This document shows positions 6,123 to 28,223 of a DNA stretch of 49,900 nt, piece after piece. Made by a program: the position numbers and the translations under genes. Location of the stretch: assembly GCA_012974475.1 (NCBI GenBank), contig JAAXQD010000219.1, positions 1-49,900 of the forward strand, in the 5' to 3' direction. Every line of letters starts with the position of its first letter. The first letter of the stretch is position 1. Under the pieces are notes generated by a model, which ran no database searches, was not told the DNA's origin, and was given only the letters and a program-made list of their open reading frames with translations. The stretch comes from Desulfobacterales bacterium (GTDB lineage Bacteria > Desulfobacterota > Desulfobacteria > Desulfobacterales > UBA11574).

Positions 6123-7286
6123 TTATCTGTTCGCTTTGCGAATTCCAAGCTGATCCAGAGCAATGATCCATTTACAGATATTGGCCGATCCTTCAACCAT
6201 GGTATAGGTGGGGGCGTCCCGAAAAAAACGTGCGATGGGATACTCTGTAGAATATCCGTATGCCCCCAGAATCCTCATGGCAAAGTTGGCGCACTTTGTT
6301 ACGACTTCACCGGCAAAATATTTTGCCTGTGCCACACCGAGGCCGTTGTTGAGGTTCCCCTGATCCTTTTCCCAGGCAGCCTTGTAAACCAGGAGCCGGG
6401 CAGCCTCGATCTCGGCAGACATCTGGGCAATCATATCCTGATTCATCTGAAACTCGCCGATGGGTTTCCCGAACTGTTTGCGTTCATTACAATATTTTAG
6501 CGACACATTCAAACATGCCTGGGCAACTCCTACGGCACCGGCGGCTGCAGAAAGGCGGGTCTGATTGAGTGAGCCGAAGAGTATCCTTGCGCCGTCTCCG
6601 GGTTTTCCGATGATATTTTCCCGGGGTACCCGTGTATTGCTTAAAAATATCTCACCTGTGGGAGAGGAGTGAGACCCCATTTTTTCTAAGGCCGATGTTC
6701 TAACACCGTTAAAATTCTTCGTCTCCACAACAAAGGCCGAAAGACCCTTGGATGCCTTATCTGTATCCGTATAGGCATAATAAATAATAACATCTGCAAC
6801 ATCTGCATTGGAGATCCAGGTCTTGGAGCCGTTTAATAGCCAGTGATCCCCCTTGTCTTCTGCAGTTGACATCATGGCCATCACATCGGAACCGGCATCG
6901 GGTTCTGTGATTGCAAAACCACCGATGGTGTCGGCGTTAACCAGCTGGGGGATGTATTTTTGTTTTAAGACTTCGCTCCCGTATTTGCATATGGTAAAAG
7001 CGCTTCCAAGGCACTGCATGTTGACCTGAACCCTCAGAGAGCTTGATGCTTTTGCAATTTCTTCGGTCACAATCATGGCCGCCAGCCAACCCATGTCTTC
7101 TCCGCCATATTTTTCAGGAATGACCGTTCCGAAAAAACCGAGTTCTCCCATGGGCTTGATGGCTTCTTTATAAGGGAAATAATGGTTTGCATCCCACTCA
7201 TCAGCATAGGGTGCAATTTTTTTGGCTGCAAATTCAGAAACCGCCTTTTTCAGCATCTGAAGTTCTTTAGATAACGCAAAATCCAT
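6123..7286 (-). CDS. Acyl-CoA dehydrogenase (context suggests a glutaryl-CoA/short-chain role)
   Basis: 387 aa from the ATG at 7286 (GGGAGGA SD). ACAD-family N-terminal, middle and C-terminal domain pattern: FAITEPDAGSD, FGKPIGEFQ, and a catalytic-base region YEGSANI-like (MVEGSANI). Confidence 0.85.
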   Translation of the reverse strand: MDFALSKELQMLKKAVSEFAAKKIAPYADEWDANHYFPYKEAIKPMGELGFFGTVIPEKYGGEDMGWLAAMIVTEEIAKASSSLRVQVNMQCLGSAFTICKYGSEVLKQKYIPQLVNADTIGGFAITEPDAGSDVMAMMSTAEDKGDHWLLNGSKTWISNADVADVIIYYAYTDTDKASKGLSAFVVETKNFNGVRTSALEKMGSHSSPTGEIFLSNTRVPRENIIGKPGDGARILFGSLNQTRLSAAAGAVGVAQACLNVSLKYCNERKQFGKPIGEFQMNQDMIAQMSAEIEAARLLVYKAAWEKDQGNLNNGLGVAQAKYFAGEVVTKCANFAMRILGAYGYSTEYPIARFFRDAPTYTMVEGSANICKWIIALDQLGIRKANR

Positions 7287-12644: not shown

Positions 12645-12839
12645 TCAATCATCTTCTACGATAATGGCATCAGCGCCGCATTCATCTGCAGCCTGCCTGA
12701 CAAGCGCCTCGTATTGTGCAGGAACTTCATCCACCTTAACAATAGACTTCAGCTCGTCCTCATTGTATTCGAAAACTTCAGGACACAAGTCGTTACAACG
12801 CCGATCTCCCATGCAATTTTCAGTGACTTTTACTTTCAT
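12645..12839 (-). CDS. Small single-cluster ferredoxin
   Basis: 64 aa from the ATG at 12839 (AAGGAG SD 7 nt upstream). Cys pattern CMGDRRCNDLCP...C resembles Fer4_13-type 3Fe/4Fe ferredoxins. Confidence 0.8.
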   Translation of the reverse strand: MKVKVTENCMGDRRCNDLCPEVFEYNEDELKSIVKVDEVPAQYEALVRQAADECGADAIIVEDD

Positions 12840-12876
12840 TTTTTTCTCCTTATTCAATTAATTTCAAGCTGTGGGG

Positions 12877-13320
12877 TTAAGAAAACTTCTGACCAATGGC
12901 TTTCCCGTAATCCTGGCAGGCACGCGTCCCTTCATCCGTTTCCAATCCCTGTTCTTTCAGATTTAATGAACCCAGATCAACCATGTCCATTTTGAATACG
13001 TAAAGCATGGTGTCATATATCATGTCGGCAGATTCCCCGCTATGGGTATAGGACCCGAATGCGCCTCCCATCTTGCCCACCAGATTGGCTTTTTCCGCCA
13101 GGAATAGAAATGTTTTCATGCCCGCAGTGATGTCCCGATGATATGTGGGACACCCGAAGATAAAACCGTCATATCCTCCTATATCTTTTTCATCTTTTAT
13201 TTCAGAGATTTTTTTCAGCTCTGCGGTGTTTCCGGTGAGACGGACACCTTCAGCGATATATTCCGCCATTTTTTCCGTGTTTCCAGTTCTGCTGTAATAG
13301 CCGATAAGCACTTTTGCCAT
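12877..13320 (-). CDS. Short-chain flavodoxin
   Basis: 147 aa. The N-terminal FMN phosphate loop YYSRTGNTEKMA is present, along with GCPTYH. An AGGAGG SD is present. Confidence 0.8.
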   Translation of the reverse strand: MAKVLIGYYSRTGNTEKMAEYIAEGVRLTGNTAELKKISEIKDEKDIGGYDGFIFGCPTYHRDITAGMKTFLFLAEKANLVGKMGGAFGSYTHSGESADMIYDTMLYVFKMDMVDLGSLNLKEQGLETDEGTRACQDYGKAIGQKFS

Positions 13321-13360: not shown

Positions 13361-13858
13361 TTAATCCACCCTGGAAAAAGCCTTGATGTTGGCGTTGCAA
13401 ACCGGGCATGTTTCCGGAGGTTCATTCTCACAGGTATAGCCACACACGCCGCAAACATAATAGCATTCCACGGCTTCAGGATTATCAAGACTGTCCAATG
13501 CCTTCTGGTAGAGATCGGCGTGTATTTTTTCAACTTCATTGGCATAGGTAAAGCTTCTCAGAGCTGCTTTGTCTCCTTCCGATTGTGCGGTTTCAATCAT
13601 TGCCGGATACATACTTTTAAACTCATGGGTTTCACCGGCAATGGCTTCTTTGAGATTTTCAGCGGTTGAATTTACTCCTTTGAGAACTCTCAGATGTGCA
13701 TGGGCATGGACGGTTTCAGCCTCTGCAGCCGCCCTGAAAAGGTTGGCAACTTTCGGATAACCTTCCCGATCCGCCTTTTTTGCAAATGCAAGATACTTTC
13801 GGTTGGCCTGGGATTCCCCGGCAAATGCTTCCTGTAAATTTTTTTCTGTTTGACTCAT
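13361..13858 (-). CDS. rbr: Rubrerythrin
   Basis: 165 aa. N-terminal di-iron four-helix motifs (EAFAGESQANRKY, E..H pairs) plus a C-terminal rubredoxin-like CGVCG...CPVC. Confidence 0.9.
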   Translation of the reverse strand: MSQTEKNLQEAFAGESQANRKYLAFAKKADREGYPKVANLFRAAAEAETVHAHAHLRVLKGVNSTAENLKEAIAGETHEFKSMYPAMIETAQSEGDKAALRSFTYANEVEKIHADLYQKALDSLDNPEAVECYYVCGVCGYTCENEPPETCPVCNANIKAFSRVD

Positions 13859-13873
13859 ACGATCTCCTCCTTT

Positions 13874-14344
13874 TTATTCAATTAAATCTTCCATGGTCAG
13901 TTCATAGTTGATATCAATACAACCGATGACGCTTTGGGCTCCGGGACACAATTTCAAATGGGCTTTAAGCGCATCTTTTGCCTCTGTCCTCTTTTCCTTT
14001 GGCAATTTAAGCCAGTAACTGACGTTAATGCGTGTAATTTTCAAAACACCGTCGACGTTTTCGATGTCACCGGTTACGACGGCTTTAAACTGATCTTTAA
14101 AGGTCCGAATCTTTTTGCCGGCCAGCACCGCGGCCAGTGTGCCCATCATTCAGCCGCCCACTGCACCGACAATGTGATCTAACGTTGCCGCATGCTCTTC
14201 TTCCGGATCAATTTTATAGAAATTTTTGATTCCGCCGTGGACCCCGTAATAGACCGGTTCAGCAAAACCCTTGATCACGGCTTTCCGGGTAGGCCCCATT
14301 TCTCTCGTGATCGTAATATGTGATGTGTGAACAATTTCAGCCAT
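13874..14344 (-). CDS. OsmC/Ohr-family peroxiredoxin-like protein with in-frame TGA (putative selenocysteine)
   Basis: Track ORFs 14150..14365 and 13874..14149 are contiguous in one frame, separated only by a TGA at 14152-14150. The read-through is ...LDHIVGAVGG-U-MMGTLAAVLAG..., at the conserved first-Cys position. The second conserved Cys is in LKLCPGAQS. The ATG at 14344 has an AAGGAGG SD. Confidence 0.75.
14118..14137 (-). promoter_or_regulatory. Candidate bacterial SECIS hairpin
   Basis: On the minus strand CUGGCC-GCGGUGCU-GGCCGG forms a 6-bp stem with one G-U pair and an 8-nt G/U-containing loop. It starts 12 nt downstream of the in-frame UGA. Confidence 0.45.
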
Positions 14345-14387
14345 AATTTCCTCCTTGATTATCACCCCGAACAGCGGGTGAATTATG

Positions 14388-14407
14388 TTAATGATATTTA
14401 ATGATAT
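14388..14407. repeat. Exact tandem 10-mer (TTAATGATAT x2) in the promoter region of the osmC-rbr-fld-fdx operon
   Basis: Read directly at 14388-14397 and 14398-14407, 44 nt upstream of the OsmC-like start. The AT-rich ATGATA content is reminiscent of Fur/PerR-type boxes. Confidence 0.4.
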
Positions 14408-14453
14408 TCTTATTATGAAACCATCATATGGGGCGATGGTTCATGTCGATTCA

Positions 14454-16793: not shown

Positions 16794-18389
16794 TTAGGTC
16801 CAGTATGGATTGATGAGGTCTTCAAATATGGCCATAGCCGCTTCTGCACCGTGTCCGGCGGCCGTTACGATTTGCTTGTATCCCCCGGACACATCTCCGG
16901 CCGTATAAATTCCCGGAATATTTGTCCTGTAATTATCATGCTTTATAAACCCTTCATCCGAAAGCTCGATCCCAATTTTTTGGGCCAGCTCGACAGCAGG
17001 ATCATACCCAATGGCAATAAAGACGCCATTAACGGATCGAGGATAAGATTCTTCGGTATTATTGTTGAAAAGCAGAACTTCTTCTACGTTATGTTTTCCC
17101 CTGATTTCCTTGACTTCAGTATCAAAAAGTATCGGAATATTATTTTGTATCAGGTTTTTCACCAAAAAATCCTGAGCTTTTAGATTATCTCTCCTGTGAA
17201 CCAGGGTGATATCCACGCCGATATGATGCAAATGAAGTGCTTCTGTAACGGCACTGTTGCCGCCGCCGACAATAATGACTTTTTTCCCCTTAAAAAGCGG
17301 GCCGTCACAGGTACTGCAATAACTGACGCCATGCCCTGAAAGGCGTAATTCGCCAGGGACGCCGAGATTCCTGTGCGTCGCCCCGGTGGCCATCAATACG
17401 GCCTTGGTCTTGAATTTTCGTCGGGTGGTTTGTACGTTGATAGGATCATTGAGGGTGATCTCAACAACCCCTTCTCCCGGGAAAATCTGTACATATTCCA
17501 AAGCATGGGTCACCATAATATCAACAAGTGTTTTTCCGCCAATTTGTTTGAGGCCCGGATAATTTTCAACAACCGGGGTGGTGGCCACCTGACCCCCAAG
17601 GACCCCTTTTTCTACGACCACCGTTTTAAGACCGCTTCGTGCTGCGTATATCCCGGCTGTCAGTCCCGCCGGGCCGCCCCCCACAATTACCAGATCTGCC
17701 TCGACTTCCTCTGCATCACTTTCGGGAATGAATACCGTCTGTTCCTCCATTTTATCCAGAGATAGCATAAAAAGCTCTTCCGTCTGTGCACCCTGGGCAA
17801 TCAAAATGTCATTTGCATATGTTTGGGGAACAGATTGGGCTGAATATCGGGTGGCAAGTTCAGGGTTGGCTTGGATGTCGATGATTTCCAGAGAAACTAA
17901 CCCGGGTTTTTCAACAGCCGCCTTTAACGCGTTCAGCGCCTGCTGGGGACAATACGGACAGCTTGCGCTGACAAATACCTTGATATTTCTTGGGGTGTCT
18001 ATACGTTTTATGATCTGGAGTGATTGTTCGTTGAGATTGCTCTTCTGAAGACCGATGAGGATGAGCGCTTCCAGAAAGATACGCCCCTCTTCACCGAGGG
18101 GTGCTCCCAGCCACCGGATATTGTATCGGTCCGGATCGAAAACCAGAGTAGGCGAATATTCAACGTTCCATTTTTTTGCGGATTCATGATATAAATTAAA
18201 TTCGCGCAATACAATTTTATCGGTGAGCTGCCGAAAAAAACGAATGGCCTGCCTGGCGGTATCAGTGAATACATCATTTTGGCCGGGCTGAGCGTACAAA
18301 AAAATAGGAATTTCTGCTTTGATCGCACCCAAAATTCTTTCAATTTCTTTTTGGGCTTCCAGTGCCTGAATGTCTTCCTGTTGATCCAT
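16794..18389 (-). CDS. AhpF-like fusion: N-terminal thioredoxin/glutaredoxin-fold domains plus thioredoxin-disulfide reductase
   Basis: 531 aa. N-terminal CPYC redox motif (SASCPYCPQ), FAD motif VIVGGGPAGLTAG, TrxR active site CSTCDG, NAD(P) motif VGGGNSA. Confidence 0.8.
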   Translation of the reverse strand: MDQQEDIQALEAQKEIERILGAIKAEIPIFLYAQPGQNDVFTDTARQAIRFFRQLTDKIVLREFNLYHESAKKWNVEYSPTLVFDPDRYNIRWLGAPLGEEGRIFLEALILIGLQKSNLNEQSLQIIKRIDTPRNIKVFVSASCPYCPQQALNALKAAVEKPGLVSLEIIDIQANPELATRYSAQSVPQTYANDILIAQGAQTEELFMLSLDKMEEQTVFIPESDAEEVEADLVIVGGGPAGLTAGIYAARSGLKTVVVEKGVLGGQVATTPVVENYPGLKQIGGKTLVDIMVTHALEYVQIFPGEGVVEITLNDPINVQTTRRKFKTKAVLMATGATHRNLGVPGELRLSGHGVSYCSTCDGPLFKGKKVIIVGGGNSAVTEALHLHHIGVDITLVHRRDNLKAQDFLVKNLIQNNIPILFDTEVKEIRGKHNVEEVLLFNNNTEESYPRSVNGVFIAIGYDPAVELAQKIGIELSDEGFIKHDNYRTNIPGIYTAGDVSGGYKQIVTAAGHGAEAAMAIFEDLINPYWT

Positions 18390-18415
18390 CGTTTATTTTC
18401 CTTTTTTTTATGAAA

Positions 18416-19069
18416 TCAATCTCTAAACACGAGCTTCCCGCCGAGAAATCCAGCTGTCACAGCCGCACCAAGCATAACCATGTTAACAAAGAGAAACGCG
18501 ACCAAATGGGTGGAAGTCAGTGATAACACGCCGGGGTCAACAATAGACCATGCGACCAATATCATTGCCGTTAATGATACCACACCACCGCAAATCATCT
18601 TTGTCAGAAACAGGGTTGTCATCGCACCGTTATATTTTTTTTGCCACACAATAACCCCTGAAAAAAGCACCAGCGGCATAGAGAAGACCACAAATATGAG
18701 GTTATAAAATGCGGCCTGACTTAAGCCGGTGAACTTGAAAATAACAGCCAAAAAGATAAACAGAACAGAAACGGGAAGTAAGCCGTTGGGGATATGGACC
18801 GAAATCGGATGGACATGATGCTTGACCATCAGTTGATAAATCCGGTCATATTTTGACAAAGGGTCAAGCGTTGTTCCTGGAGCATCTGCGACGTTTGCTT
18901 CAGTTTCAGGTTCTAAGGGGTCTATTTTTGTTTTTGATTTTTTTTCACCATTTTCTTCAGCAACAATTTCAACAAACTTACTTCGATCAGCGCCACAAAC
19001 CGGGCATATTTCAGGCGGCTCCTCTCCTTCATGAATGTAGCCGCAGACCGTACATCGCCACTTTTTCAC
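18416..19069 (-). CDS. Rubredoxin-domain protein fused to a 4-TM (DUF2231-like) membrane domain
   Basis: GTG start with an AGGAGG SD. N-terminal WRCTVCGYIHEGEEPPEICPVCGADRSKF, followed by hydrophobic helices. Confidence 0.7.
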   Translation of the reverse strand: MKKWRCTVCGYIHEGEEPPEICPVCGADRSKFVEIVAEENGEKKSKTKIDPLEPETEANVADAPGTTLDPLSKYDRIYQLMVKHHVHPISVHIPNGLLPVSVLFIFLAVIFKFTGLSQAAFYNLIFVVFSMPLVLFSGVIVWQKKYNGAMTTLFLTKMICGGVVSLTAMILVAWSIVDPGVLSLTSTHLVAFLFVNMVMLGAAVTAGFLGGKLVFRD

Positions 19070-22244: not shown

Positions 22245-23588
22245 ATGATTGAAATCCGCACCCGTAAAGGCTACAATATCAATATCGCCGGCATGCCTTC
22301 TCATGATCTTGAAATTTTGGAGAAGCCCGCGAGAGTGGCGCTTTTGCCGGAAAGAATCCCCTTTGTTAAACCCCGCCTCAAGGTCAAAGTCGATGATCCG
22401 GTTAAAGTGGGTTCCATTGTTTTTGAAGACAAGCGAAATTCTCAACTCGTATTTTTATCACCGGGCGGCGGTAGAATCGCCAAAATCAAATACGGTCCCC
22501 GAAGAGTCATAAAAGAGATCGTCATAGAGTTGGATCAGGATGAGGGCTACAAAGCATTTCCCGTTATCAGCGAAGCCCGGCTTGAAGGCATGGAAAGAAA
22601 AAAGCTGGTTAAAACGATAATGACAGGCGGGCTATGGCCCCTGTTCAGAGAGCTCCCCTTTCGAGATGTTCCAAATCCTGACGTCGTCCCACCATCGGTC
22701 ATTGTCAGTCTCAATTCCAGAGAGCCTTTTCAGCCCGTGCCGGAAGCTTATTTAAACGACAGAATTGATCTGTTTGAATTCGGCATAAAAATTTTACAGA
22801 AACTGTCAGAAACGCTTATAATAAGCACATCTTCGGACGATAGTTTTGTCCAAGACCGCCTAAACGGTTTTGTGACGCACACCTGCAATGGGTTTTATCC
22901 TGCCGACGATCCGGGTGTATTACTGTATCATATCAAAAAAAGTCCGGATGAAAACCGGTCCTGGTATATCAACGGACAGGATGTACTTCTTTTGGCGATG
23001 CTCTTTAAAACCGGAAAATACCCCGTGGATCGAACCCTGGTTTTAGGCGGATCCCTTGCCAGGGAAAGAAAGCATCTTCAGACCAGAATCGGCGTTCCTT
23101 TGAATCATATCACAAAGGGACGTGCAGACGATACCGGAGCAGCCAGATATATTGTCGGGGGAATTTTCAAAGGTTATACCGGTTCAAAAGATTCATATCT
23201 GGGGTTTTATGAGACCTCTCTGGTGTTGATTCCCCAAGGCGATGAAAAAGAGTTTTTTGGGTTTGCCAGACCCGGGTTTGACAAACCCAGCCGGTCCAGG
23301 ACATTTTTATCTTTTTTAAATAAATCGTCTATGGCCATGGATTGCAATTGTCATGGTGAAGTACGGGCTTGTATCAATTGCGGATTCTGTAGCGAGGTCT
23401 GTCCGGTGGATATTTTACCCCAGTTCACATACAAAAGCATACTGGCAGATGAAGTTGAAGAGGCATTAAATCACGGCCTGCTCGATTGTGTGGAATGCTG
23501 TCTGTGCACCTATGTCTGTCCATCGAAGATCGAACTGAAAAATATTCTCAAGGAAACAAAAAAAGCATACTTTTTGGAACAGATGTAA
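22245..23588 (+). CDS. nqrA: Na+-translocating NADH:quinone oxidoreductase subunit A, with RnfC-like 2x[4Fe-4S] motifs
   Basis: The N-terminus (MIEIRTRKGYNINIAGMP...VFEDKRN...SPGGGRI) is NqrA-like. The C-terminus carries CINCGFCSEVCP and CVECCLCTYVCP. It is the first gene of an nqrABCDEF-ordered operon. Confidence 0.85.
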   Translation: MIEIRTRKGYNINIAGMPSHDLEILEKPARVALLPERIPFVKPRLKVKVDDPVKVGSIVFEDKRNSQLVFLSPGGGRIAKIKYGPRRVIKEIVIELDQDEGYKAFPVISEARLEGMERKKLVKTIMTGGLWPLFRELPFRDVPNPDVVPPSVIVSLNSREPFQPVPEAYLNDRIDLFEFGIKILQKLSETLIISTSSDDSFVQDRLNGFVTHTCNGFYPADDPGVLLYHIKKSPDENRSWYINGQDVLLLAMLFKTGKYPVDRTLVLGGSLARERKHLQTRIGVPLNHITKGRADDTGAARYIVGGIFKGYTGSKDSYLGFYETSLVLIPQGDEKEFFGFARPGFDKPSRSRTFLSFLNKSSMAMDCNCHGEVRACINCGFCSEVCPVDILPQFTYKSILADEVEEALNHGLLDCVECCLCTYVCPSKIELKNILKETKKAYFLEQM

Positions 23589-23590
23589 TC

Positions 23591-24784
23591 ATGAAGTTTA
23601 TACAAAAAATTTTCGATTCCAAGCGAAAGCATTTTGTGGAAGGCGGTAGGTTTGAAAAAGTCTATCCTCTTTTTGAGGCCTTCGAAACTTTTTTCTTTAT
23701 TCCGGGCAATGTAACAAAAAACGATGCTCACGTGCGAGACAGCCTTGATCTCAAGCGTCTGATGAGTCTGGTGATCGTGGCCCTGATTCCGCCGCTTTTT
23801 TTCGGCATCTATAACACCGGCTATCAGTCGAATCTGGGCTCCGGACTTCCGGTGACGTTGGTCGCTGTTTTCATCAAGGGGCTCCAAATTGTTCTACCGA
23901 TAATTATGGTATCCTATGGTGTTGGATTTGCATGGGAGGTTTTGTTTGCATCCATTCGAAAACACAACATCAGCGAGGGATTTCTGGTTACCGGTCTCTT
24001 ATTTCCCCTGACACTTCCGCCGACGATTCCCCTCTGGCAGGTTGCCCTGGGCATCTCATTCGGTGTGATCTTTGGTAAAGAGATCTTTGGCGGCACGGGA
24101 AGAAACTTTTTAAACCCCGCATTGACCGGACGGGCGTTTTTATTTTTTGCCTATCCCATGAAAATGACCGGGGATACCGTATGGACGGTGGTTAGCGGTG
24201 TCAATTCCCAGGGTGTGGATATCTTCAGCGGAGCCACACCCCTTGCGGTTTCCGCCGTTCAAGGGACCTCTGCATTTATAGAATCTTTGCTGTCAAAAGC
24301 CGGGTTTACGTTGCCCAAACTCTTTTACGGCTTGTATCCCGGAAGCATCGGGGGGACATCGACGTTCATGTGCCTATTGGGCGCTCTCTTGCTGGCTTTT
24401 ACGGGCATCGCCAGCTACAGGATCATGATCGGCGGTATTCTTGGGGCACTGGTCGCCGCATCTCCGGGATACATTGTGAGCCTTGTATCCGGAAATTCAA
24501 CGGTTCCGATGCTGTCGCTGCCACCGTTTTATCATCTGGTGATGGGTGGATTTGCTTTTGGAATTATCTACATGGCCACCGATCCGGTTTCAGCACCGGG
24601 AATGAACATTTCAAAATGGATATACGGTTTCGCCATTGGTGCGTTGACGGTACTGATACGCATTTTCAATCCGGCATTCCCAGAAGGGATCATGCTGGCG
24701 ATTCTTTTCATGAACCTGTTTTCGCCGCTGTTGGATCATTTTGAAATTCATTTCAGGCTGAAAAAAAGGGTGCCCAATGTCTAA
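23591..24784 (+). CDS. nqrB: Na+-NQR subunit B
   Basis: The ATG at 23591 is 2 nt after the nqrA stop. The protein is polytopic. FSGATPLA is the covalent-FMN threonine motif. Confidence 0.9.
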   Translation: MKFIQKIFDSKRKHFVEGGRFEKVYPLFEAFETFFFIPGNVTKNDAHVRDSLDLKRLMSLVIVALIPPLFFGIYNTGYQSNLGSGLPVTLVAVFIKGLQIVLPIIMVSYGVGFAWEVLFASIRKHNISEGFLVTGLLFPLTLPPTIPLWQVALGISFGVIFGKEIFGGTGRNFLNPALTGRAFLFFAYPMKMTGDTVWTVVSGVNSQGVDIFSGATPLAVSAVQGTSAFIESLLSKAGFTLPKLFYGLYPGSIGGTSTFMCLLGALLLAFTGIASYRIMIGGILGALVAASPGYIVSLVSGNSTVPMLSLPPFYHLVMGGFAFGIIYMATDPVSAPGMNISKWIYGFAIGALTVLIRIFNPAFPEGIMLAILFMNLFSPLLDHFEIHFRLKKRVPNV

Positions 24785-25475
24785 TTATATCAAATCCTTT
24801 TTATTTGCAGCAGTGTTGAGCCTGGTTTGCGGCAGTTTGCTGACTCTGGCATCCACCGGTTTGAAGGAATATCAGCTTGAGAACATTGAACTCGACAAGC
24901 ATAAAAACATATTAAAATCCGTTGGTCTGCTGAATGGCGAAGACGCTGTTTCACAAGAGACCGTTGAACAACTTTATTCCGAGAACATCGGACAGATATG
25001 GATTAATGTTGACGGCAAAATTGTTCCGGAACAACGAAAGGGTAAAAATGATCTGCAAGTCTATCTTTTTTCTCAACAGGGGAAAATACAAGCCTATATC
25101 ATCCCCATTCATTCTCGAGGGCTGTGGGGAAAAATCTCAGGATATATGGCGATAAAAAATGATGGGGCCACCATTTCAGGATTTACCGTTTACAGCCACC
25201 AGGAAACCCCCGGTCTCGGCGGAGAGATTGAGAAAAAATGGTTCCAGAAAAATTTCCAAGGTAAAAAAATTCTGGATGACCAGGGTAATTTTGTCGCCAT
25301 TGCCATTGCCAAAGGATCGGTTAAAGAGCGGATACCTGAAAGCCGTCAGAAAAATTTCGTCGACGGCATCAGCGGCGCTTCCATGACCGGAAAATTTTTA
25401 TCTGCCGGGTTAAAGCAGACATTGACGGAATACGAACCTTTTTCTGAAAGATTCAGAAAAAACGAAATCAAATGA
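24777..25475 (+). CDS. nqrC: Na+-NQR subunit C
   Basis: Overlaps the nqrB stop by 8 nt. It has an N-terminal TM anchor and the flavinylation motif DGISGASMTG. Confidence 0.85.
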   Translation: MSNYIKSFLFAAVLSLVCGSLLTLASTGLKEYQLENIELDKHKNILKSVGLLNGEDAVSQETVEQLYSENIGQIWINVDGKIVPEQRKGKNDLQVYLFSQQGKIQAYIIPIHSRGLWGKISGYMAIKNDGATISGFTVYSHQETPGLGGEIEKKWFQKNFQGKKILDDQGNFVAIAIAKGSVKERIPESRQKNFVDGISGASMTGKFLSAGLKQTLTEYEPFSERFRKNEIK

Positions 25476-26095
25476 AGATAACAAAAACCAAAGCCTTTAA
25501 CGTATTCTTTAAACCCATATGGGAAAGCAATCCGATTTCCGGACAAATCCTGGGAATATGTTCTGCCCTGGCAGTCACCGTTCAACTAAAGACAGCCGTT
25601 GTTATGGGCCTGGCCCTGACCCTTGTTCTGGCTTTTTCGAATCTGTCGATCTCTTTGATGCGCAAGTTTATCCCCAGAAATATTCGTATTATCATCGAAC
25701 TCACCGTCATCGCAACATTGGTGATTCTCACAGATCAGGTTCTGAAAGCATTTCTGTACGACATCAGCAAGCAACTCTCCATTTTCGTGGGGCTTATTAT
25801 CACGAATTGCATTATCCTGGGAAGGGCCGAAACATATGCCCTGGGGAATCCCCCGTTTCTATCCCTGTTGGATGGCATCGGTAACGGTCTTGGTTACAGT
25901 CAAATTCTGATCACGGTGGCGGTGATTCGGGAGTTTTTTGGTGCAGGAAAATTTTTTGGATTTCAGGTGATACCCGATACGTTTTATGCCGCAGGATATG
26001 AAAATATGGGGCTTATGGTTCTGGCGCCGGGTGCGTTTATCGCTATCGGCCTGATCGTTTGGCTTCAAAAGACGGTTTCAAAAGAAAAAACTTAG
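25472..26095 (+). CDS. nqrD: Na+-NQR subunit D
   Basis: ATGA overlap with nqrC. 207 aa with 6 TM. Conserved Cys residues occur in ILGICSALAV and ITNCIILGR. Confidence 0.9.
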   Translation: MKITKTKAFNVFFKPIWESNPISGQILGICSALAVTVQLKTAVVMGLALTLVLAFSNLSISLMRKFIPRNIRIIIELTVIATLVILTDQVLKAFLYDISKQLSIFVGLIITNCIILGRAETYALGNPPFLSLLDGIGNGLGYSQILITVAVIREFFGAGKFFGFQVIPDTFYAAGYENMGLMVLAPGAFIAIGLIVWLQKTVSKEKT

Positions 26096-26113
26096 TTTCG
26101 CTTCACTCGCCAT

Positions 26114-26237
26114 TGGAATAATGGATTCATGGAATGATGGGTTTAAAGGAAAAGGGGATATATACAATACAAATAGATTTATTGGCTATTAACAAATGTG
26201 ATAAATTCTGTTTTTTACCCAATATTCCAATATTCCA
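26114..26237. repeat. Convergent arrays of TGGAATNN-type octamers inside the nqrD-nqrE spacer
   Basis: Plus strand, 26114-26145: TGGAATAA TGGATTCA TGGAATGA TGGGTTTA. Minus strand, 26237-26214: TGGAATAT TGGAATAT TGGGTAAA. The two arrays face each other across 68 nt. Confidence 0.6.
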
Positions 26238-26312
26238 TGGAGATTTCGTCATCGATTGGATTTAAAGATTAAATAAATTTCAAAAAGTTGTAGAAATTCC
26301 AAAACGTAAAAT

Positions 26313-26921
26313 ATGGAAAATCTTGTCAGCATATTTTTAGATTCCGTTTTTGTCGGTAATATCCTTTTGGCGTATTTTCTGGGGATGTGTTCTTTTCTTG
26401 CCATTTCCAGAAAAATGGAAACCGCCATAGGGCTCGGTTTGGCGGTGACGTTTGTGCTTTCCATTACAACACCGGCAAACTGGCTCGTTTATCACTATCT
26501 GCTATCGCCCGGCGCCCTTGCATGGGCGGGTTTCCCGGGAATTGATCTTAGCTTCTTAAAATTTATAATCTTTATCGCCGTTATTGCAGCCATTGTTCAG
26601 GCCCTGGAAATGATCATCGACAGGTATTTACCCCCTTTATACATGGCGCTGGGCGTGTTTCTTCCACTGATTGCCGTGAATTGTGCCATTTTAGGAGCGT
26701 CTTTGTTCATGGTGGAGCGGAATTATAATTTTATAGAATCTGTTGTGTACGGCGCAAGTTCAGGTTTTGGATGGATGCTTGCCATTGTTACCATGGCGGG
26801 AATTCGAAAAAAACTCAGATACGCCAATGTTCCCAAGGGACTTGAAAATTTTGGAATCAGTATGATTATCACCGGCCTTATGGCCATGGCGTTTATGTTG
26901 TTTTCGGGGATTACGCTATAA
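26313..26921 (+). CDS. nqrE: Na+-NQR subunit E
   Basis: 202 aa. Contains [11 protein letters not shown] and [10 protein letters not shown]. It is separated from nqrD by an unusual 217-nt spacer. Confidence 0.9.
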
Positions 26922-26996
26922 CATGATAATGGGTTATGGTTAAGGGACAATAGAATTATTTGTGACATCTAGCCACGGACTATTAAGGAATTATCG

Positions 26997-28223
26997 TTGA
27001 CTTACCTCGTTAGCCTGACAGTTTTTTCCTCAATCATCTTCATCCTTGTGGGGCTCCTTTTGCTGGTGGAAGCCAAGGTCGTCAAAAAGGACGACTGTGA
27101 TATTGTTATCAATGATGACGAGGAGAAAAGCTTAAAGGTGCCCGGTGGTATCACACTTTTGTCTGCGCTTGCCGCCAATGAGATTTATATTCCATCGGCC
27201 TGTGGCGGGGGCGGTTCATGCGGGACATGCAAGTGCGTGGTAGAAGAGGGTGGAAGAGGTATTCTGCCCACCGAGCTTGCCCATCTGACCCGACGGGAAA
27301 AAAAGGAAAATGTTCGTCTATCCTGTCAGCTCAAGGTCAAAGAAAATATGAAGATTCGGCTGCCGGAAGAAATCTTCAATGTTAAAAAATACGGCGCTAC
27401 TGTGGTTTCAAACGACAATGTTGCGACATTTATCAAGGAACTGGTACTGAAACTCGATCCCGGCGAAGCACTTGAATTCAAGGCCGGGGCCTATATACAG
27501 ATTGATATTCCGGAGTATGGGTTTTCGTTTTCAGAATTCAGGGCCAGGGTGGCCGAACGTTTCAGGCCCGACTGGGATGCCTTCAACCTCTGGGGGTTGC
27601 AGTCAAAGGCAGAAGAGCCGATTTTCAGAGCCTATTCCGTGGCAAATCCTCCCAGTGAAAAAGACATCTTGGAATTTACGATCCGGATCGCCACCCCGCC
27701 CCCCGGGGTTATAGAAGCACCCCCCGGCATAGGATCATCTTATATTTTCAATTTGAAACCGGACGACCGGGTGACATTAAGCGGTCCTTATGGAGATTTT
27801 TTTACTAAGGAAACCGAAAGGGAAATGTGTTTCGTTGGCGGCGGCGCCGGAATGGCGCCGCTAAGGTCTCATATTTTTCACCAACTCAATACATTGAAAA
27901 CAAAACGGAAAATCACGTTTTGGTACGGGGCCCGATCAAAGCTGGAGCTGTTTTTCGAAAAAGAATTCAGGGATTTGGAAAAAATATATGAGAATTTCTC
28001 ATTTCACGTGGCATTATCTCAGCCCAAAGAAGCGGATGATTGGGAAGGTATGACCGGATATATCCACCAGTGTCTGCTTGACCATTACCTTATCCAACAT
28101 GAGGATCCCACCGAAATTGAATATTATCTCTGCGGCCCGCCCCTAATGATTGATGCCATTGAAGATATGCTGGACAATCTCGGGGTGGACCCGGAAATGA
28201 TCGCCTACGACAAATTCGGTTGA
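26997..28223 (+). CDS. nqrF: Na+-NQR subunit F (2Fe-2S, FAD, NADH-binding)
   Basis: TTG start with an AAGGAA SD. N-terminal TM, 2Fe-2S motif CGGGGSCGTCKC, FAD motif RAYSVAN, NADH motif GGGAGMAP. Confidence 0.9.
   Translation: MTYLVSLTVFSSIIFILVGLLLLVEAKVVKKDDCDIVINDDEEKSLKVPGGITLLSALAANEIYIPSACGGGGSCGTCKCVVEEGGRGILPTELAHLTRREKKENVRLSCQLKVKENMKIRLPEEIFNVKKYGATVVSNDNVATFIKELVLKLDPGEALEFKAGAYIQIDIPEYGFSFSEFRARVAERFRPDWDAFNLWGLQSKAEEPIFRAYSVANPPSEKDILEFTIRIATPPPGVIEAPPGIGSSYIFNLKPDDRVTLSGPYGDFFTKETEREMCFVGGGAGMAPLRSHIFHQLNTLKTKRKITFWYGARSKLELFFEKEFRDLEKIYENFSFHVALSQPKEADDWEGMTGYIHQCLLDHYLIQHEDPTEIEYYLCGPPLMIDAIEDMLDNLGVDPEMIAYDKFG

Follow-up and report, generated by a model that had tools for sequence, protein, structure and literature searches.

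A predicted OsmC/Ohr-superfamily selenoprotein with a SECIS-like hairpin in Desulfobacterota

In 2005, Zhang, Fomenko and Gladyshev predicted OsmC-like selenoproteins in Sargasso Sea data, describing three sequences of the COG1765/YhfA type with a UxxT motif (PMC1088965), so that the mention of earlier reports that accompanied the original prediction for the locus described here was correct. These sequences have since been relisted (PMC2398784, PMC9312934, PMC13188914), and a survey of Olavius symbionts contained none of the Sargasso type in its deltaproteobacterial symbionts. Thermodesulfobacteriota rank with the bacteria that have the most selenoproteins (PMC13188914, PMC9312934). The closest relatives with solved structures are the thiol-dependent Ohr/OsmC hydroperoxide reductases, which carry Cys instead of selenocysteine (Sec) and include E. 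coli OsmC (1NYE/1QWI), Xylella Ohr (1ZB9) and Elizabethkingia Ohr (6D9N).

The window analyzed here, by which we mean the whole stretch of 49.9 kb of DNA of a sulfate-reducer-like bacterium, contains on its minus strand a complete gene of the OsmC/Ohr superfamily (13874-14344) in which codon 65, a UGA, is very probably decoded as Sec within a protein of 156 residues. The frame runs from the ATG at 14344 to a TAA stop at 13876-13874, comprises 156 codons with GAA as the last sense codon, and its sole interruption is the TGA at 14152-14150. In agreement with the original prediction, the two open reading frames located at 14150-14365 and 13874-14149 share this one minus-strand frame and are parted by nothing other than the TGA. 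When read through, the junction becomes ...ATLDHIVGAVGG-U65-MMGTLAAVLAGKK...LKLCPGAQS..., and the second conserved Cys that had been expected in LKLCPGAQS is residue 133 (codon 13948-13946, minus strand), presumably the resolving Cys. A Shine-Dalgarno sequence, AAGGAGG, is located 5 nt upstream of the ATG (14350-14356, minus strand), and an equivalent precedes the start codon also in relatives. Standard annotation had been predicted to split the gene, and this is what we found in NCBI, where a Desulfobacterales MAG carries the halves as MDX2496400.1 ('hypothetical protein', 64 aa) and MDX2496401.1 ('OsmC family protein', 91 aa), with many analogous split pairs besides. An exact look-up of the joined 156-residue protein in public protein records, with either W or X at residue 65, showed that it is absent from them. 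The 109-nt stretch upstream of the gene (14345-14453, minus strand) contains ATATCATTAA twice in tandem. We also observed an inverted repeat, TCACCC-GCTGTTCG-GGGTGA, at 14362-14381, directly ahead of the ribosome-binding site, and a weak sigma-70-like site at 14419-14391. The upstream repeats, kept in the closest relatives alone (loci L003, L007, L008 and L009), may be an operator or a 5′-UTR hairpin.

Membership of the OsmC family was analyzed on the joined product with Cys set at position 65. Pfam OsmC (PF02566) matched it with 40.6 bits (E=3.7e-10), above the gathering threshold of 27.5 bits, and the match spanned residues 56-147 and model positions 10-99 of 100. The alignment proposed as a check of the original prediction is thus above threshold across the junction created by the TGA. 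NCBIfam gave a faint match to a peroxiredoxin subfamily and nothing else. An AlphaFold2 model built from 18 sequences reached a mean pLDDT of 82 and a pTM of 0.77, and the best 50 PDB fold matches listed by Foldseek were all OsmC, Ohr or OsmC-like proteins (E values of ~1e-5 to 4e-4, TM scores of 0.4-0.6), their high rmsd probably arising because a monomer model was used for a domain-swapped dimer. A profile search of PDB sequences gave no match at E≤0.01, and at E≤10 its sole match was a marginal one, to an Ohr at E=0.094. In this marginal alignment, column 65 corresponds to the first, peroxidatic Cys and Cys133 to the second Cys in VCPYS. The window protein therefore resembles the Ohr/OsmC hydroperoxide reductases in fold, in its similar length and in keeping both catalytic Cys positions, with the predicted Sec at the peroxidatic one. 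In contrast to them, it would have Sec in place of Cys, it is only 9-18% identical to the solved structures, and its family has a His/Tyr-rich N-terminal motif of its own.

We then compared the window protein with the Sargasso representative AACY01145085, whose sequence was taken from the supplement of the paper. BLASTP showed 28% identity over 53 residues, and hhalign of AACY01145085 against the window clade gave 20% over 101 columns with a probability of 76% (E=2e-5). Both are members of the OsmC superfamily (PF02566), and the alignment pairs U65 with the Sec of the Sargasso protein and C133 with the second Cys of that protein. The placement of the TGA at the peroxidatic Cys position of OsmC/Ohr proteins, as originally proposed, is hence supported by two alignments, since the Ohr Cys and the Sargasso Sec share its column. 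The AACY01145085 gene also contains a hairpin located 13 nt after the UGA (UGAAGCG-GUA-CGCUUCA) that resembles the window's in its 7 bp and small G-containing loop, although the two hairpin sequences are unrelated, and both the Sargasso type and the window clade are known from sequence prediction alone. In other respects the two differ: the motif is UxxT in the Sargasso type and UMMGT (UxxxT) in the window protein, the latter has ~20 more N-terminal residues that include an invariant YYGVHGGIxxFY, and the hosts are surface-ocean plankton in one case and anaerobic Desulfobacterota of sediments and wetlands in the other. The clade profile did not reach E. coli YhfA (1ML8) by sequence. Because of the UMMGT motif, the longer N-terminus with YYGVHGGIxxFY and the anaerobic hosts, we regard the clade as separate from the Sargasso type, and the window gene appears to represent a distinct, widespread clade of an already known kind of selenoprotein. 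Our literature search found no description of this clade, which is absence of evidence only. A bolder interpretation, which we advance tentatively and hold to be somewhat doubtful as a whole, is that of an undescribed, Desulfobacterota-wide clade of OsmC-fold selenoproteins in which Sec is the prevailing and probably ancestral state, with motifs of its own, perhaps a chemistry other than that of Ohr/OsmC, and a place missing from the protein databases because its members are systematically split or mistranslated. The Sec state was found in ~95% of ~165 sampled loci, the Cys forms being nested within groups of Sec forms to which they are 84-87% identical.

The residue encoded at the TGA was followed across relatives. 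A protein search returned full-length homologues of 152-164 residues together with hundreds of ~90-residue fragments that start right after the TGA. In the alignment of the full-length homologues, column 65 contained C in eight and W in nine. Two of the W entries were checked (P0001 and P0008, corresponding to loci L001 and L002) and their DNA codon is TGA, the W being due to gene callers having used genetic code 4 or 25 on short contigs; P0159, P0238 and P0291, classed on protein sequence alone, also have W or G at the active-site position in public protein sets. A species-level scan (one genome per species) revealed a relative in at least 584 genomes, the best 80 of which all belong to Desulfobacterota and include the isolate Desulfosarcina cetonica JCM 12296. 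Carriers of the gene with a complete genome sequence include CP070768.1, CP070652.1, CP070735.1 and CP070692.1. TGA was present at the same codon in 82/82 species-genome loci, as it is in the window itself, and a scan of metagenome contigs seeded with Cys forms yielded 76 TGA and 2 TGC among 78 motif-matched loci. The resulting 158 full-length Sec-form relatives (82 from species genomes and 76 from metagenome contigs), which are 59-93% identical to the window protein, all keep the frame intact. The codon is TGC in eight loci (L083-L088, L090 and L091), and one pair of a Sec form and a Cys form shares 84% identity. True Cys forms thus read TGC at the TGA column, the homologue state that the original prediction had proposed to look for. 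Among representatives of 50%-identity clusters of the wider family, Cys occupied column 65 in 28/40 full-length proteins, W or G occurred in three (probably TGA again) and other residues in six, and many entries end at profile position 64 or begin at position 66. In the Sec-form relatives both halves of the gene are conserved in residues while third positions vary, a pattern which indicates that both are under purifying selection. None of the relatives was seen to carry two genuinely separate genes, the arrangement named at the outset as speaking against a single selenoprotein gene, and the halves were always contiguous in frame.

The SECIS-like hairpin is located at 14118-14137 on the minus strand, within the coding region. 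Its sequence is CUGGCC(G)-CGGUGC-(U)GGCCGG and the base of the stem lies 12 nt 3′ of the UGA, in agreement with the CUGGCC/GGCCGG hairpin originally placed here. Positions 14137-14131 pair with 14124-14118 to form 7 bp, including a closing G-U, and the apical loop CGGUGC occupies 14130-14125. The minimal SECIS element of E. coli fdhF has an 11-nt spacing from the UGA. The window's hairpin is like a bacterial SECIS of the fdhF type in being a coding-region hairpin just 3′ of the UGA, with a stem base 11-12 nt away and a small G(G)U apical loop; it is unlike it in lacking a bulged U in the upper stem and in having a stem of only 7 bp. RNAalifold analysis of 36 diverse sequences identified a helix 16-22/29-35, numbered from the U of the UGA, in which 95% of cells were paired, compared to 3-52% after sliding one strand. 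Pair 16-35 changed from C-G to U-A in 12/36 sequences and the observed covariation score was unmatched by any shuffle; compensatory evidence comes from this one pair, because the GGCC/GGCC core never varies. Synonymous sites within the hairpin are frozen. The third-position entropy in 83 Sec forms was 0-0.16 bit at codons +5 (Leu), +6 (Ala), +7, +9 (Leu/Met) and +10 (Ala), versus 1.3-1.9 bits at flanking four-fold degenerate codons, and in 157 distinct Sec-form sequences the values were 0.10-0.62 bit in stem and loop codons versus 1.25-1.97 at nearby four-fold sites. At codon +7 the residue itself varies (T65, A36, R27, V13) and yet the third base, which is the first G of the apical loop, is G in 155/157. 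Codon bias does not explain these frozen sites, since GCC accounts for 43% of Ala codons and CTG plus TTG for 47% of Leu codons in the window genes. The isolated hairpin has a predicted energy of -9.7 kcal/mol in the window (mean, -9.3), and the window's 48 nt downstream of the UGA are no more stable than shuffles (z = -0.17) and are predicted to adopt an alternative structure, so that the case for the hairpin comes from comparative data and not from thermodynamics. Rfam gave no match on the whole window at the gathering threshold, nor on 14050-14200 at E≤10. Of four distinct Cys-form sequences, P0012 retains the hairpin, and in the other three, namely the P0003/P0004 clade (CTG TCC), P0010 and P0014, it is absent or its stem is broken, a contrast that involves few Cys sequences because the Cys-seeded scan gave 2 TGC loci. 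The comparative data agree with the proposal of a bacterial SECIS-consistent hairpin in that the element behaves as a constrained RNA. In one Sec form (L028, ~6192-6240), the stem is rebuilt as CGCCC/GGGCG and the residues are TFARVLGA instead of TLAAVLAG; this natural compensatory variant would be useful for SECIS tests.

The steps described next, from SelB recognition and selenium insertion to the chemistry of a peroxidase and its reductant, are inferred. When the ribosome reaches the UGA, the hairpin located 12 nt downstream, with its 7-bp stem and conserved G-G-U loop, would recruit SelB-GTP-Sec-tRNA(Sec), and Sec would then be inserted at codon 65 in place of termination. Sec65, at the position of the peroxidatic Cys of OsmC/Ohr, would attack a hydroperoxide to give a selenenic acid, invariant Cys133 would resolve this to a selenenylsulfide, and a thiol or dithiol donor would reduce the latter. 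We consider it fairly probable that the protein is a hydroperoxide reductase. A different redox chemistry of Sec65 and Cys133, for example in a relay of disulfides or persulfides or in a reaction that involves a metal or sulfur, is conceivable but rather unlikely. The clade is remote from characterized OsmC/Ohr proteins and has its own invariant YYGVHGGIxxFY, His51 and Asp56-His57, which are not known from characterized enzymes; the neighbours of the gene vary across the clade, with an Rrf2-type regulator upstream in 13 loci; and many OsmC-family members are not known to have a proven activity. On the other hand, Sec65 and Cys133 occupy both catalytic Cys positions of Ohr, and the window gene shares a predicted transcript with that of rubrerythrin, which reduces peroxides. 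The positions invariant among the 158 Sec forms are R14, R20, H36, E50, H51, D56, H57, M67, G68 and C133, some of which were included in the search motif, with R14, R20 and C133 outside it. R14, R20, E50 and D56 were considered as putative counterparts of the Arg and Glu by which OsmC/Ohr enzymes activate their peroxidatic Cys. YYGVHGGIxxFY (residues 33-43, window 14215-14247) is the most conserved motif of the clade and invariant in the 158 Sec forms. It coincides with the sole stretch that AlphaFold modelled with low confidence (pLDDT below 50 at residues 34-48), and this stretch may be a dimer-interface or active-site loop.

The genomic context was examined for its bearing on function. According to Pfam, the OsmC-family gene is followed on the minus strand, after 15 nt, by a rubrerythrin gene (13361-13858); a flavodoxin gene (12877-13320) comes next after a gap of 40 nt and a 4Fe-4S ferredoxin gene (12645-12857) after one of 19 nt, and past the ferredoxin are subunits of a 2-oxoacid:ferredoxin oxidoreductase. 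Upstream, on the same strand, are genes for a DASS-type transporter, a CBS protein, an AhpF/TrxR-like flavoprotein and a rubredoxin-DUF2231 membrane protein. The tight operon that had been said to fit a peroxide-detoxifying role is thus present in the window, where it suggests a role in the peroxide or oxygen defence of an anaerobe, but this context does not characterize the family as a whole. The rubrerythrin/flavodoxin/ferredoxin order is conserved in the closest ~12-15 relatives alone, the other relatives having different neighbours, and for this reason the operon is weak evidence of a family-wide function and conserved synteny was rejected as a functional clue for the whole family. In the region 16794-19069 (minus strand), the flavoprotein (16794-18389), a 531-aa AhpF/thioredoxin-reductase-like protein with an N-terminal thioredoxin-like CPYC domain, stands beside the rubredoxin-DUF2231 protein, and in ~12 relatives both occur together with the OsmC gene. 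The flavoprotein may serve as the reductant system of the OsmC-family protein.

Two real genes, instead of one, could in principle be encoded at this locus, the UGA ending a 64-residue peptide and UGAAUG restarting a 91-residue OsmC fragment, to give a split protein by termination-reinitiation coupling. This arrangement would account for the ATG ATG located directly after the TGA in 153/157 distinct Sec-form sequences, for the GGAGG found immediately before the TGA in some relatives and for the two genes of the public annotation. However, Cys-form relatives are single ORFs that read TGC-ATG-ATG, and the Met-Met pair is therefore a part of the protein and not a start signal; in addition, CTG follows the TGA in four Sec forms. 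The cut would also fall within the active-site helix turn of one OsmC domain, and the constraint on the hairpin and its loss in Cys forms would be left without a role. Taking these results into account, a split pair is very improbable compared to a single gene with Sec at codon 65.

Reading of the UGA as Trp, Gly or Cys, through a reassigned code or near-cognate suppression, was likewise weighed against Sec. Gene callers have put W or G at the codon in several database entries, and no Sec machinery came to light in the DNA examined, which comprised the 49.9-kb window and flanks of related loci: no SelA, SelB or SelD was found by Pfam among 37 window ORFs, ARAGORN detected no tRNA in the window and no tRNA-Sec in the flanks of 60 related loci, and selA, selB, selC and selD were all missing from this DNA. 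The only translational GTPase of the window, a protein of 601 aa, was considered as SelB and rejected, since Pfam identifies it as LepA. In contrast, TGA is the stop codon of 13/35 Pfam-supported genes in the window, which indicates that it is not reassigned here (genetic code 4 or 25), and the hosts are Desulfobacterota, a selenoprotein-rich group with the standard code (PMC13188914). Moreover, relatives have Cys at the aligned column, in no case a Trp encoded by TGG, and the conserved hairpin is located at SECIS distance. We thus hold decoding as an amino acid other than Sec to be scarcely credible. When the window and all loci were screened for additional conserved ORFs with an internal TGA, none emerged beyond the OsmC-family gene, and other clusters of TGA-containing ORFs were rejected as selenoprotein genes because they are antisense or out-of-frame shadows. 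Finally, the TGA could stem from an error of assembly or sequencing, or from a nonsense mutation that disabled a Cys-type OsmC gene of the ordinary kind, and a single TGC to TGA change would suffice. This reading is virtually dismissed by the occurrence of the same TGA in 158 full-length loci that are independent of one another, come from various species and samples, are free of frameshifts and show strong residue conservation on both sides while synonymous sites vary.

The practical value of recognizing the Sec codon is in annotation, since relatives occur in hundreds of metagenome contigs and in no fewer than 584 genomes at the species level, and public records either contain a 64-aa hypothetical protein with a 91-aa truncated OsmC or wrongly place Trp or Gly in the active site. 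These entries could be mended with a profile combining the joined protein with the hairpin, which would also add one family to counts of the selenoproteome of sulfate reducers. The biological value is smaller: the protein would be a Sec-dependent member of the oxidative-stress set of strict anaerobes, which includes rubrerythrin, flavodoxin and ferredoxin, and the natural Sec/Cys pair, with up to 84-87% identity, offers a probe of the benefit of selenium to an OsmC-type active site. No concept is changed by the finding.

Two further observations were made in the course of the analysis. Selenoprotein forms of NqrE are known from marine metagenomes. The window contains an Nqr/Rnf-type six-gene cluster on the plus strand (22245-28223), in which the NqrE has no in-frame TGA and a gap of 218 nt (26096-26312) separates two Rnf-Nqr membrane-subunit genes. 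In the Cys-form locus L083 (5001-5956), the gene is convergent to a second, divergent OsmC-family gene of 132 aa, and the neighbourhood, which comprises MarC and DNA alkylation repair genes, is unrelated to that of the window.
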